Shown here in pieces: positions 22,261-56,903 of a DNA stretch of 64,000 bases. Within the stretch, counting starts at the first letter, position 1. Each line of letters begins with the position of its first letter. The DNA is from Escherichia coli O157:H7 (GTDB lineage: Bacteria > Pseudomonadota > Gammaproteobacteria > Enterobacterales > Enterobacteriaceae): assembly GCA_013403045.1 (NCBI GenBank), contig GCA_013403045.1_3037.1. One strand, given 5' to 3'. The notes under the pieces were generated by a model, which was given only the letters and a program-made list of their open reading frames with translations, had not been told where the DNA came from and did no database searches. The position numbers and the translations under genes were made by a program.

Positions 22261-23070
22261 TTAGAAACGAGATGCGACTTTCGCATATACACTTACAATA
22301 TCTTCTGCACCTTGTGCAGATTTATCTTCTACAGCTTCAGTGACGAAATTCAGTCCGGCTGCTTCAGTATCAGGAGTATTTATACTCTCAGTAATAGTGC
22401 TTTCATCTTTATTAGATTTCTTCACCATTTCTACTATGGCACTCAATTTGCTTGAGAATGCATCTGAATAATCAATACCTTCGACCAGAGCAGAGACTTT
22501 TTCTTTTTGAGACTCAGTCAGATCTTTAGTACTTTCGCTCAATGCCACTTCACGCTGCACATAATTGATATATGCGTCACGCTTATTGAGTTCTTCGAAC
22601 AGACGAGCTGATTCTTCTTTATGTTCTTGCAGTTCTTCTTCCATTTCAGCTACAACATCAACTGATTCTTCTGGAACAACAACGTTGTGTTCAACGAAGA
22701 GCTCTTTCAATCCACCAAGCATGGATTCAAACAGTTCGGCTTTGATACCTTTATCTACTGCTAATTTATTTTCAGTGAGCCATTCTTTTGCAAGATGGTC
22801 AAGGAATTTAGAAGCTTGCTCAGCGATTTTCTTCTCAGCTTTTTCTTCTGCTTCTTCTTTATTTTTTTCTACTTCTTCTTCTGCTTTTTCAGCAATTTTA
22901 GCGATATGAGATTCAGCTAATTTAACGGCGTGCTGCTTGACGGTAGCTTCGAATACAGTGCCGAAAGTTTCTTTTGCTTCCGGAGAAATATTAACTGATT
23001 CGAAAATACTATCAAGAGCAACGGAAGCATCAATTTTCTGCGCTTCGGCAATCAGTTGTTCTTTAAGCAT
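22261..23070 (-). CDS. 22: prohead core scaffold gp22
   Basis: 269 aa as in T4; acidic coiled-coil composition. Confidence 0.9.
   Translation of the reverse strand: MLKEQLIAEAQKIDASVALDSIFESVNISPEAKETFGTVFEATVKQHAVKLAESHIAKIAEKAEEEVEKNKEEAEEKAEKKIAEQASKFLDHLAKEWLTENKLAVDKGIKAELFESMLGGLKELFVEHNVVVPEESVDVVAEMEEELQEHKEESARLFEELNKRDAYINYVQREVALSESTKDLTESQKEKVSALVEGIDYSDAFSSKLSAIVEMVKKSNKDESTITESINTPDTEAAGLNFVTEAVEDKSAQGAEDIVSVYAKVASRF
22377..22384 (-). promoter_or_regulatory. candidate late promoter (minus-strand TATAAATA) inside the 3' end of gene 22, upstream of gene 23
   Basis: plus-strand TATTTATA about 135 nt upstream of the gene 23 start. Confidence 0.35.
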
Positions 23071-23100: not shown

Positions 23101-23739
23101 TTATAACGCTTTTTTCATGGCCTCTGCGAGAGCCATATAGGCGTCATCGGCACTTGTATCGGCTTCCGCCGTCTGTGATTCTGTAATTTCCTTAGGAGTT
23201 ACCCATGCATCTGGAGCACTTGGACCCCATACTGCATCAACACCTACAGTTAATTTGAATCCTTCGTTTACGATACGATAACCTTTATTTGTGTCAGTCA
23301 ATGAACCTAATCCACGAGAAGAAACTCCTGGAATCCATCCGGCACGAATATTAGCTGCTAATTTATCTCCAGGACCATGGTCACCTTCAATAACACGAGC
23401 TCGTCCGTATACGTCATTTCCTTTCCACCACATATCTTCTATAATGATAGCGGCTTGCATCGGGTCAACATTAGCGCGTGGAGGATGATTTAATTCTCCG
23501 AGAGCTTGTTTAGTTAAAACTTGCTCATTAATATAGTCTTTTACCGCTTTTTCTAATATACGTTTTGGATAAAGACGTTTATTTCTATTGACGACTTCTG
23601 CTTGCATGAATATTCCTTCGATGTATAAACCAGGTTTTAAACCTAAGTCTTTCCCATCATGGGATTCAAGCATTGGCACACCATCAATAATTTCGCCAGG
23701 TTGACCCCAAGTTTCAATTAGCAATTGGGGTTCATTCAT
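23101..23739 (-). CDS. 21: prohead protease gp21
   Basis: 212 aa as in T4; synteny. Confidence 0.9.
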   Translation of the reverse strand: MNEPQLLIETWGQPGEIIDGVPMLESHDGKDLGLKPGLYIEGIFMQAEVVNRNKRLYPKRILEKAVKDYINEQVLTKQALGELNHPPRANVDPMQAAIIIEDMWWKGNDVYGRARVIEGDHGPGDKLAANIRAGWIPGVSSRGLGSLTDTNKGYRIVNEGFKLTVGVDAVWGPSAPDAWVTPKEITESQTAEADTSADDAYMALAEAMKKAL

Positions 23740-51214: not shown

Positions 51215-51939
51215 ATGAAACTAATCTTTTTAAGCGGTGTAAAGCGTAGTGGAAAAGATACTACTGCTGATTTTATCATGAGCAATTATTCTGCAGTTAA
51301 ATACCAACTTGCTGGTCCTATTAAGGATGCATTGGCTTATGCATGGGCAGTATTTGCAGCAAACACTGACTATCCTTGCTTAACTCGTAAAGAGTTTGAA
51401 GGAATTGACTATGATCGTGAGACTAATTTAAATCTGACTAAATTAGAAGTAATCACGATTATGGAACAAGCATTTTGCTATCTTAATGGTAAAAGCCCAA
51501 TTAAAGGTGTGTTTGTTTTTGATGACGAAGGAAAAGAATCAGTTAATTCCGTAGCATTTAACAAGATTATTGACGTTATAAATAATATTGAAGATCAATG
51601 GTCAGTCCGTCGTCTGATGCAAGCCCTAGGTACGGATTTGATTGTTAATAACTTCGACCGCATGTACTGGGTAAAATTATTTGCTTTAGATTATCTTGAT
51701 AAATTTAACTCAGGTTATGATTATTATATCGTTCCTGATACTCGTCAAGATCATGAAATGGATGCGGCTAGGGCGATGGGTGCTACAGTAATTCATGTAG
51801 TTCGTCCTGGTCAAAAATCCAATGATACACATATTACAGAAGCTGGATTGCCAATTCGTGATGGTGATTTAGTAATTACAAACGATGGTTCTCTTGAAGA
51901 ACTTTTTTCTAAAATTAAAAATACACTAAAGGTACTATA

Positions 51940-51940: not shown

Positions 51941-52680
<740 letters not shown>

Positions 52681-52709
52681 ATCTCATCAAAATTAATTAG
52701 GAAAATAAA

Positions 52710-52967
52710 ATGAAAACTTTCAAAGAGTTTGCTACAAAAACTACTATCACTGAATCTTCTCATGGTATGGAAGTAAAGCTTGGAATGGCTTTAGCTGAAG
52801 CTGAGCGTCTTTTCTCTCGTATTAAAGAACTTGCTGCTGCAGTCGATCCTTCGTCTTTTAAAGGAGACCAAACTAAAGTTAAAGCACTTTTAGCATTATG
52901 CTCTGACGCAGGAGAAATCGCTAAAAATGGTTCTAAGATGAAGAAACGATTAGAAGATTTAAAATAA
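52710..52967 (+). CDS. internal-protein-like small protein with capsid-targeting N-terminus
   Basis: 85 aa; N-terminus MKTFKEFATKTTITE resembles the T4 Ip leader MKTYQEFIAE with an I-x-E gp21 cleavage motif; at the ipI position next to 57B. Confidence 0.65.
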   Translation: MKTFKEFATKTTITESSHGMEVKLGMALAEAERLFSRIKELAAAVDPSSFKGDQTKVKALLALCSDAGEIAKNGSKMKKRLEDLK

Positions 52968-53010
52968 TTTCACAAAGTTGTTTACACGGGGTTTTAGTAG
53001 TGATACTATT
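52951..53010 (+). repeat. direct repeat copy B (60 bp) containing an early promoter
   Basis: same core as copy A; -35 GTTTAC at 52980-52985, -10 TACTAT at 53004-53009. Confidence 0.7.
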
Positions 53011-53037
53011 ACCCTATCAACTACTGAGGAGAATAAA

Positions 53038-54416: not shown

Positions 54417-54654
54417 GAATTATTTGTTATTATTAACTCATACCGCACTGATTAATACCCTCTATCATCAGAGAAAGTCCAATAGGCAGAACAGGAGATT
54501 GGATTCTTTTAATTATGCTTGTTAATATTTTGACAGCAGCAATATTATCTGGGATATGGTGCGCGTTCATTGAAATGCCATGGCGGTTACGCAGACAGCA
54601 AAAGATTTTTGATGAAAAGAAATATACTCAAAATTTAAATAACTTTATCACTGA

Positions 54655-55642
<988 letters not shown>

Positions 55643-55736: not shown

Positions 55737-56210
55737 ATGAAAACATATCAAGAATTTATTACTGAAGCAGCTATTAATTCTCAAATTATTGCTGAATCTT
55801 TTACTGATCTTTTGAAATTTAAAAAAGGTCAAAAAATCACTGCTGTATTGGATGATGGTACAGAAGTTGAGATGGATGTACAGGGATATAATTATGCAGT
55901 AGATGGAAAACTGTATAATAAATCTCATGCTAAATTTGATTCATTTGACGACTTTGTTAATACAGTTGAAGATGAAAAAACTCGTAGATCCATTGCAACT
56001 GGCGACGCTAAGGTTCTTATGGCACATGGCCATGAACGCATCCGCGCTAAACAGAATAAAATGGGCGAAGATAATTTTGCATTAGTTGGTTATCAATCTG
56101 GTAAACAAACTTATGGCTATCAGCGTACTGCTACCATGTATAACAAAAATGGTAAAATTGCCTTTGTGAATAGTAAAGGTTCTATTCAGTACGTTAAATC
56201 GTTCAAATAA
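55737..56210 (+). CDS. internal protein (Ip) family member with capsid-targeting sequence
   Basis: 157 aa; N-terminus MKTYQEFITEAAINSQIIAES with I-T-E and I-A-E gp21 cleavage motifs; adjacent to e as ipIII/ipII are in T4. Confidence 0.7.
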   Translation: MKTYQEFITEAAINSQIIAESFTDLLKFKKGQKITAVLDDGTEVEMDVQGYNYAVDGKLYNKSHAKFDSFDDFVNTVEDEKTRRSIATGDAKVLMAHGHERIRAKQNKMGEDNFALVGYQSGKQTYGYQRTATMYNKNGKIAFVNSKGSIQYVKSFK

Positions 56211-56315
56211 GCAAATAAGAAATATGGGAACAAGCTGGACCTCATGATTCTGTGAGGGATTCCCGCCAACCTGTAATAAGGTCGAGCCCAAGTGCGGTAA
56301 TGGGTAAATACAGAA

Positions 56316-56903
56316 ATGGACAATTCATGCGCCATGGAATGGCCCAAATTTAGAGAGAATAAAATGAGAACATTTTTAACTGGTCCTTATCTATCCCTGA
56401 TGAATGCTTTTACACACCATTCTGATGCTAGAGTAGAAGAAATTTGTAAAAACGATTATATCCCACCATTTGAAGAATTACTTAAACAGTATTGCACACT
56501 TCGACTAGATGGTGGACGTCAATCCGGTAAATCAATTGCTGTGACTAACTTTGCTGCTAATTGGTTGTATGATGGCGGAACAGTTATCGTTCTTTCTAAT
56601 ACTTCAGCTTACGCTAAAATTTCTGCAAATAACATTAAAAAGGAATTTTCGCGTTATTCTAATGATGATATACGTTTTCGTTTATTTACTGATTCTGTGC
56701 GCAGTTTTATTGGTAATAAAGGAAGCAAGTTCAGAGGTTTATCGCTTTCGCGAATTTTGTATATAATTGATGAGCCTGTCAAATCTCCTGATATGGATAA
56801 GATTTATAGTGTCCATATTGAGACTGTACACTACTGCTGTAATAGTAAATGTTGTATTGGTGGTATTACTCGTCCACAGTTTTTCGTAATCGGAATGCAA
56901 TGA
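56316..56903 (+). CDS. P-loop NTPase, function unknown
   Basis: 195-aa ORF; Walker A GGRQSGKS and Walker B-like LYIIDEP; C-terminal Cys cluster; start codon uncertain (56316, 56334 or 56364). Confidence 0.55.
   Translation: MDNSCAMEWPKFRENKMRTFLTGPYLSLMNAFTHHSDARVEEICKNDYIPPFEELLKQYCTLRLDGGRQSGKSIAVTNFAANWLYDGGTVIVLSNTSAYAKISANNIKKEFSRYSNDDIRFRLFTDSVRSFIGNKGSKFRGLSLSRILYIIDEPVKSPDMDKIYSVHIETVHYCCNSKCCIGGITRPQFFVIGMQ

Follow-up and report, generated by a model that had tools for sequence, protein, structure and literature searches.

Among the closest described systems are the internal head proteins (Ips) of phage T4. Proteins bearing a capsid-targeting sequence (CTS) enter the gp22 core, which has a role in CTS targeting (PMC3012670). 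T4 IpI has 95 residues and its mature form 76 (PMC3012670), indicating a cut after T-I-T-E that takes off 19 residues. The mature protein, IpI* (IPI*), is an inhibitor of the GmrSD enzyme of E. coli CT596 (PMC4437046, PMC3012670). A 2025 study added two further GmrSD variants, one inhibited specifically by IpII and the other by IpIII (PMC12373910). In the cytoplasm, IpIII does not require its CTS for activity (bioRxiv 10.1101/2022.04.14.488369). Repoila et al. (1994) are cited in later papers for at least 10 Ip proteins, recognised by their N-terminal signal (PMC12373910, PMC3012670). The polymorphic ipI locus, the alternative Ip proteins and the anti-restriction hypothesis for all Ips are already in print (PMC3012670, PMC12373910), and the remaining Ips are proposed to target further GmrSD variants (PMC12373910).

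The window, by which we mean the whole 64-kb stretch of DNA that was analysed, contains an 85-codon, ATG-initiated open reading frame (ORF) at 52710–52967 (+) whose N-terminus translates to MKTFKEFATKTTITESSHG, confirming the length and the N-terminus given in the original prediction. Over 451 bp that include the ORF, identity is 100% to Escherichia phage AR1 and 97–99% to a large number of Tequatrovirus genomes, and in several of these the gene is annotated as ip5, "Ip5 internal head protein". Judged by its sequence, the window is DNA of AR1, a phage of O157:H7. The ORF matches PHROG 3499, "internal head protein", over residues 1–85 of 85 (E 1.2e-49), and its product is the exact sequence of Ip5 of phage T6 (UniRef Q38630_BPT6, "Ip5, Tequatrovirus"), with identities of 99% to T2 Ip5 and 92% to RB70 Ip5 (Q38378). 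The exact 85-residue sequence is present on 205 contigs of a public collection, and the gene is annotated ip5 in the records of PP01, RB51, ime09 and T2. These matches identify the ORF as ip5, an alternative internal head protein gene of the polymorphic ipI slot in T-even phages. Compared with Ip5 of T6, T2 and RB70 (Q38630, Q38378; PHROG 3499), locus and leader are the same and nothing of substance differs; the T2 allele has one Ala codon fewer than AR1, and the RB70 allele is without three residues in a predicted inter-helix loop. The gene itself is already named in T6, T2 and RB70 and has been catalogued since 1994, and nothing in the window goes beyond the existing databases and literature on Ip5. 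A reading as a chance ORF was rejected on the PHROG 3499 match and on purifying selection. A 44-codon antisense ORF at 52629–52763 (−), annotated ar1_148 in AR1, overlaps the 57B stop, the early promoter and the ip5 start, and is probably a spurious call. The positions of the features are collected in Table 1.

Table 1. Features of the ip5 locus and of the associated head genes, in coordinates of the 64-kb window.
Feature	Position	Strand	Basis
ip5 CDS, internal head protein Ip5 precursor	52710..52967	+	85 codons + stop; ORF list, PHROG 3499, UniRef identity
Leader / capsid-targeting sequence MKTFKEFATKTTITE, predicted gp21 cut after Glu15	52710..52754	+	Alignment with T4 IpI leader, alleles
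Predicted mature Ip5*, 70 aa, 7.5 kDa, pI 9.2, all-helical	52755..52964	+	Composition, AlphaFold2
Early promoter of ip5, equivalent of T4 PE2	52651..52679	+	TTTACA, 17 nt, TACTAT, upstream TG; sigma-70/T4-early type
Shine-Dalgarno AGGA, 7 nt before ATG	52699..52702	+	Sequence; part of repeat D2/D3, common to trna.4 start region
Upstream direct-repeat copy: last 57B codons, stop, promoter	52622..52690	+	69 nt, 84% identical to 52952-53020, spacing 330 nt
Downstream repeat copy: last ip5 codons, stop, promoter (T4 PE1 equivalent driving trna.4)	52952..53020	+	Repeat, X03016
Late promoter TATAAATA inside gene 1, equivalent of T4 PL1	51577..51584	+	Exact match; same context as PL1 -10 in X03016
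gp21 prohead protease, expected leader-cutting enzyme in trans	23101..23739	-	Pfam Peptidase_S77, E 1.5e-111
gp22 scaffolding core protein	22261..23070	-	Pfam T4_CASP, E 3.1e-90
Ip4, second internal protein gene, e-proximal Ip locus	55737..56210	+	Pfam DUF7412, E 6e-96; PHROG 3155 'internal virion protein'; Ip4 in AR1

A search of all six frames of the window for the start M-[KQR]-T-[FYL]-x-[EDT]-F returned two ORFs only, ip5 and Ip4, both in classical Ip loci. The residues MKTFKEF at positions 1–7 of Ip5 align to the leaders of T4 IpI, T4 IpII and T2 Ip7, and an I-T-E motif occupies residues 13–15. The I-x-E protease motif of the original prediction is thus present, as I13-T14-E15 at the end of the leader, and a leader of the capsid-targeting type was correctly recognised. 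The sequence with which that leader had been compared, MKTYQEFIAE, belongs to T4 IpII and IpIII, not to IpI, and the distance from the IpI leader that had been assumed proved mistaken, as T4 IpI starts MKTFKEFTSTTTPVSTITE, which is much closer to the leader of the ORF. In T4 IpI this start is followed by ATLT, and in Ip5 the leader MKTFKEFATKTTITE is followed by SSHG; 14 of 26 residues are identical between the two, including MKTFKEF and TITE. The leaders are 15 residues long in Ip5 and 19 in T4 IpI, with T-I-T-E common to both and Ip5 four residues shorter.

Alleles and relatives of Ip5 differ in the leader that precedes the mature part. The allele of phage TH22 has a 10-residue leader, MKTYQTFITE, joined straight to SSHGMEV, the homologues of Mosigvirus and Gaprivervirus carry the leader MKTYSEFLSESILNE followed by ATD, and distant metagenomic members have MKTYxDFLAE followed by STL. 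In the alleles with leaders of 10, 15 and 15 residues the conserved mature part begins directly after (I/L)-x-E, and the comparative leader data support cleavage at the predicted site after Glu15. Two more (I/L)-x-E motifs lie in mature Ip5, LAE at 28–30 and IKE at 38–40, both within a confidently predicted helix; if these were cut, the product would be smaller. The head machinery encoded in the window comprises gp21, gp22, gp23, gp24 and gp20 (portal). Literature searches, including virion proteomics, returned no report of the presence of Ip5 in virions or of its processing; its packaging, cleavage site, injection and anti-restriction role are what we infer here.

The AlphaFold2 model of Ip5 has a mean pLDDT of 85, with values of about 60 over the leader and above 90 in the remainder, and places helices at residues 4–44, 54–63 and 67–84, so that mature Ip5 is predicted to be a three-helix, all-helical protein. 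The original prediction held that the part beyond the leader does not resemble T4 IpI, and this is borne out, as BLASTP and hhalign of Ip5 against T4 IpI aligned residues 1–26 and 1–10 only, ruling out a full-length IpI match. An alignment by hhalign of the Ip5 family profile with T4 IpI, T4 IpII and T2 Ip7 was likewise confined to the first 10–11 residues, and tblastn with T4 IpI gave no match anywhere in the 64-kb window. No Pfam family was found for Ip5 (the best, DUF7890, at E 0.076 is noise), and PADLOC and PDB sequence searches gave nothing above noise, with designed helical bundles at E 0.02 or weaker. The structural neighbours of the model include no informative match, and fold and sequence searches gave no functional hint. 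A profile search of 1.84 billion representative proteins returned five cluster representatives that start with a leader of the T-even type; no distant relative pointing to a function of Ip5 was among the matches. With only five cluster representatives, the Ip5 family is confined to T4-like phages.

Among those phages Ip5 is widespread. A tblastn search with the mature part matched 497 phage records, 269 at an identity of at least 90% and 228 at about 54%; T4 IpI is found in 292 records, and the number to set against the 269 of Ip5 is about 280. Ip5 is therefore about as common as IpI and ranks among the two most frequent genes in the ipI slot. The group at about 54% comprises Mosigvirus and Gaprivervirus, where the gene adjoins the lysozyme gene e, the second Ip locus, rather than 57B. 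In these Ip5-like proteins (VR25 'ip5', p000v gp244) the mature part is 48–54% identical, the leader has 15 residues, the motifs KLGxALxEAE, EIAKNG and RLE are common with Ip5, and there is an 8-residue C-terminal extension. A metagenomic homologue with 35% identity sits at the 57B–trna.4 locus. Between AR1 and T2 the ip5 genes differ by 11 synonymous and 0 non-synonymous changes, and dN/dS against the TH22 allele is 0.04. Ip5 is thus a real, constrained gene under strong purifying selection, and the diversity of the locus comes from cassette swapping, not from rapid point mutation.

This conservation bears on the suggestion that Ip5, although packaged and cleaved, is aimed at no particular host target and acts as a generic filler, basic and rich in lysine, which neutralises the charge of the DNA in the head or aids packaging or ejection, with different Ip cassettes interchangeable in function. 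Mature Ip5 is basic much like IpI* and IpII (13 K+R against 10 D+E), and the lysines of internal proteins contact DNA phosphates by solid-state NMR (PMC3012670). A screen in which ip4–10 were expressed against a panel of active GmrSD enzymes gave no reproducible inhibition, and so found no target (PMC12373910, section 10, Supplementary Fig. 9). However, the net charge of Ip5 is merely +3, and a filler would not need the strict conservation seen in the AR1–T2 comparison or surface motifs, EIAKNG among them, that stay invariant in homologues of as little as 35% identity. All three T4 Ips, moreover, were once deemed dispensable fillers and proved to be specific inhibitors (PMC12373910). We regard a role of Ip5 as filler as unlikely.

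The gene order around ip5 is gene 1 (dNMP kinase), 57A (Pfam GP57), 57B, ip5, trna.4, trna.3 and trna.2. The interval between 57B and trna.4 holds ipI in T4 and ip5 here, in agreement with the ipI position originally predicted for the ORF. Directly upstream of ip5, 57B (52182–52637, +) matches Pfam Acb1, an anti-CBASS nuclease, with E 2.6e-60; it is labelled 'RNA ligase' in many RefSeq NC_ copies (including AR1, T4 and T2) and 'hypothetical' in the original GenBank submissions. With 57B an Acb1 anti-CBASS nuclease, ip5 lies in anti-defence territory. The early promoter of ip5 has one mismatch to the −35/−10 of T4 PE2 annotated in X03016, a record that annotates PE2 and PE1 at the two promoters and the late promoter PL1 within gene 1. 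The hexamers of the PE1-equivalent promoter lie at 52981–53009. Directly upstream of ip5 there is no exact late promoter, the nearest TATAAATA on the + strand being 1.1 kb away within gene 1 (Table 1), and this promoter is the closest one from which the late transcripts required for packaging might come.

The 69-nt direct repeats bracket a 330-bp ip5 unit, and their similarity extends through the ribosome-binding site (RBS). The 20-mer core of the repeat, TTTCACAAAGTTGTTTACAC, occurs at two sites only in the 64-kb window, one in each repeat copy, with 0.01 expected by chance, and the repeat takes in the terminal codons of both genes, 57B ending in ...DDLK and Ip5 in ...EDLK. An alignment of AR1, T4 and T2 DNA shows near-identity from the end of 57B through the promoter, RBS, ATG and first seven codons; identity weakens over the rest of the leader, there is none after T-I-T-E, and homology returns at TTTCACAAAGTTGTTTACA, the next promoter. 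Since homology with T4 stops at T-I-T-E and resumes at the next promoter, the exchanged segment is the mature part of the protein. Relatives carry one to four tandem CTS-bearing ORFs at the 57B–trna.4 site, T2 having ip5 and ip7. In phage TH22 (L006 1836–3002) there are four consecutive ORFs with CTS leaders upstream of trna.4, in the order MKTFNEFFNE, MQTLHEFLVE, MKTYQTFITE (Ip5) and MKTYQEFINE, which shows the extent to which an Ip array can expand. Tandem arrays and flanking repeats fit cassette exchange by recombination between repeated promoter segments. The idea of such an exchange reportedly goes back to Repoila et al. in 1994.

The same layout might be read to mean that Ip5 is not packaged at all, being an early cytoplasmic protein only, with its leader a passive by-product of recombination in the promoter–leader flank. 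The strong early-type promoter directly upstream and the absence of an exact late promoter within 1 kb would suit an early protein, and a leader inside the region of DNA identity with T4 could hitch-hike. T4 ipI, however, has the same promoter layout (PE2, and PL1 in gene 1) and each T4 head packs about 360 copies of its product (PMC4437046). At the other locus, distant Ip5 homologues keep the CTS and the (I/L)-x-E junction between different flanks, which argues for selection on the leader itself. We regard an unpackaged Ip5 as very improbable.

The e-proximal locus of the window is occupied by Ip4, a protein of 157 residues that starts with the canonical MKTYQEFITE leader and has a second motif, I-A-E, at residues 18–20. 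Over the first ~75 residues, counting the leader, it weakly resembles T4 IpII (33% identity, E 2e-4). In T4, denV and ipII lie between ipIII and vs.8, and here (56210–56320) Ip4 is followed directly by vs.8; tblastn found no homologues of denV, ipI, ipIII or ip7 in the 64-kb window. Further upstream, at the junction 54470/54471, the window is 100% identical to AR1 on both sides and is without AR1 63895–69956 (6,062 bp). The missing segment holds part of an e.2-like membrane protein gene, e.3–e.8, four small ORFs, segD and all ten tRNA genes, and ARAGORN found no tRNA genes in the window. The junction has no microhomology, no phage record in the collection spans it, and it reflects a deletion in an AR1 variant or else editing of the sequence. 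A 52-codon ORF at 54515–54673 (+), just downstream of this 6-kb gap junction, overlaps the start of nudE and probably represents what is left of the C-terminal end of the e.2-like membrane protein gene truncated by the gap.

Of the T4 proteins, IpI is like Ip5 in genomic slot, promoter, RBS, leader type (MKTFKEF...TITE) and precursor size, and both are basic; the route taken by IpI, through the scaffold core, gp21 cut and injection, is presumed to be the same for Ip5. In contrast, the mature sequences are unrelated, and IPI* consists of two beta sheets flanked by helices (PMC3012670) whereas Ip5 is predicted to be all-alpha. IpII and IpIII share with Ip5 a CTS-type N-terminus, a protease motif and the functional class of injected small proteins (PMC12373910), but lie at the other locus, have the 10-residue leader MKTYQEFIAE and differ in unrelated mature parts. 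The targets of the T4 proteins can be set against the phenotypes of T2 and T6, which carry Ip5. GmrSD-CT596 restricts T2, which IPI* rescues (PMC4437046, Table 3), both T2 and T6 are subject to restriction by the UTI89 enzyme (PMC4437046), and GmrSD-ECOR21 and GmrSD-ECOR17, the targets of IpII and IpIII, both block T2 and T6 (PMC12373910). Judging from the T2 phenotype, the target of IpI is not covered by Ip5 (PMC4437046), which agrees with the original prediction of a target other than that of IpI. That Ip5 might be a divergent IpI allele with the same target, CT596-type GmrSD, as locus, leader type and similar size could suggest, was rejected as extremely improbable, being contradicted by sequence (similarity outside the leader is undetectable by BLASTP or hhalign), by predicted fold (Foldseek against the PDB gave no IPI* hit) and by the restriction of T2.

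Restriction of the Ip5-carrying phages T2 and T6 by four GmrSD enzymes, together with the null ip4–10 screen, indicates that the target of Ip5 is not among the enzymes tested so far. One negative screen stands against an anti-GmrSD role. The best-supported reading, by analogy with the T4 proteins and from the genomic context, is that Ip5 may be an injected inhibitor of some defence attacking incoming DNA; such an inhibitor is more likely than a filler, an early protein that stays outside the head or a divergent allele of IpI. We consider it probable as a whole that ip5, in the ipI slot, encodes a protein that is packaged, cut by gp21 and injected, and that blocks a host nuclease. Early transcription of the gene would start at its own promoter, and at late times RNA polymerase would probably read through into it from the late promoter of gene 1. 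The 15-residue leader, a homologue of the IpI leader, would carry the precursor into the gp22 core of the prohead, where gp21 would cut after Glu15 of T-I-T-E to leave Ip5*, a basic three-helix protein of 70 residues, amid the packaged DNA. On ejection Ip5* would enter the cell together with the DNA and most likely bind and block a host nuclease directed against incoming glucosyl-hmC DNA, and this nuclease would differ from the known targets of Ip1, Ip2 and Ip3. More tentatively, and with a rather low probability in our estimate, the inhibited defence could lie outside the GmrSD family. Candidates would then be another modification-dependent nuclease, a hmC/glucosyl-hmC DNA glycosylase or a DNA-entry-sensing system.

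A non-GmrSD target, if true, would explain the failure of Ip5 against every GmrSD variant tested, its IpI-like frequency and its spread to both Ip loci. As Ip proteins arrive with the DNA, they act before any phage gene is expressed. They are a first-line counter-defence and a host-range determinant of T4-like phages in therapy and biocontrol, and naming the target of Ip5 would probably reveal a further anti-T-even defence.
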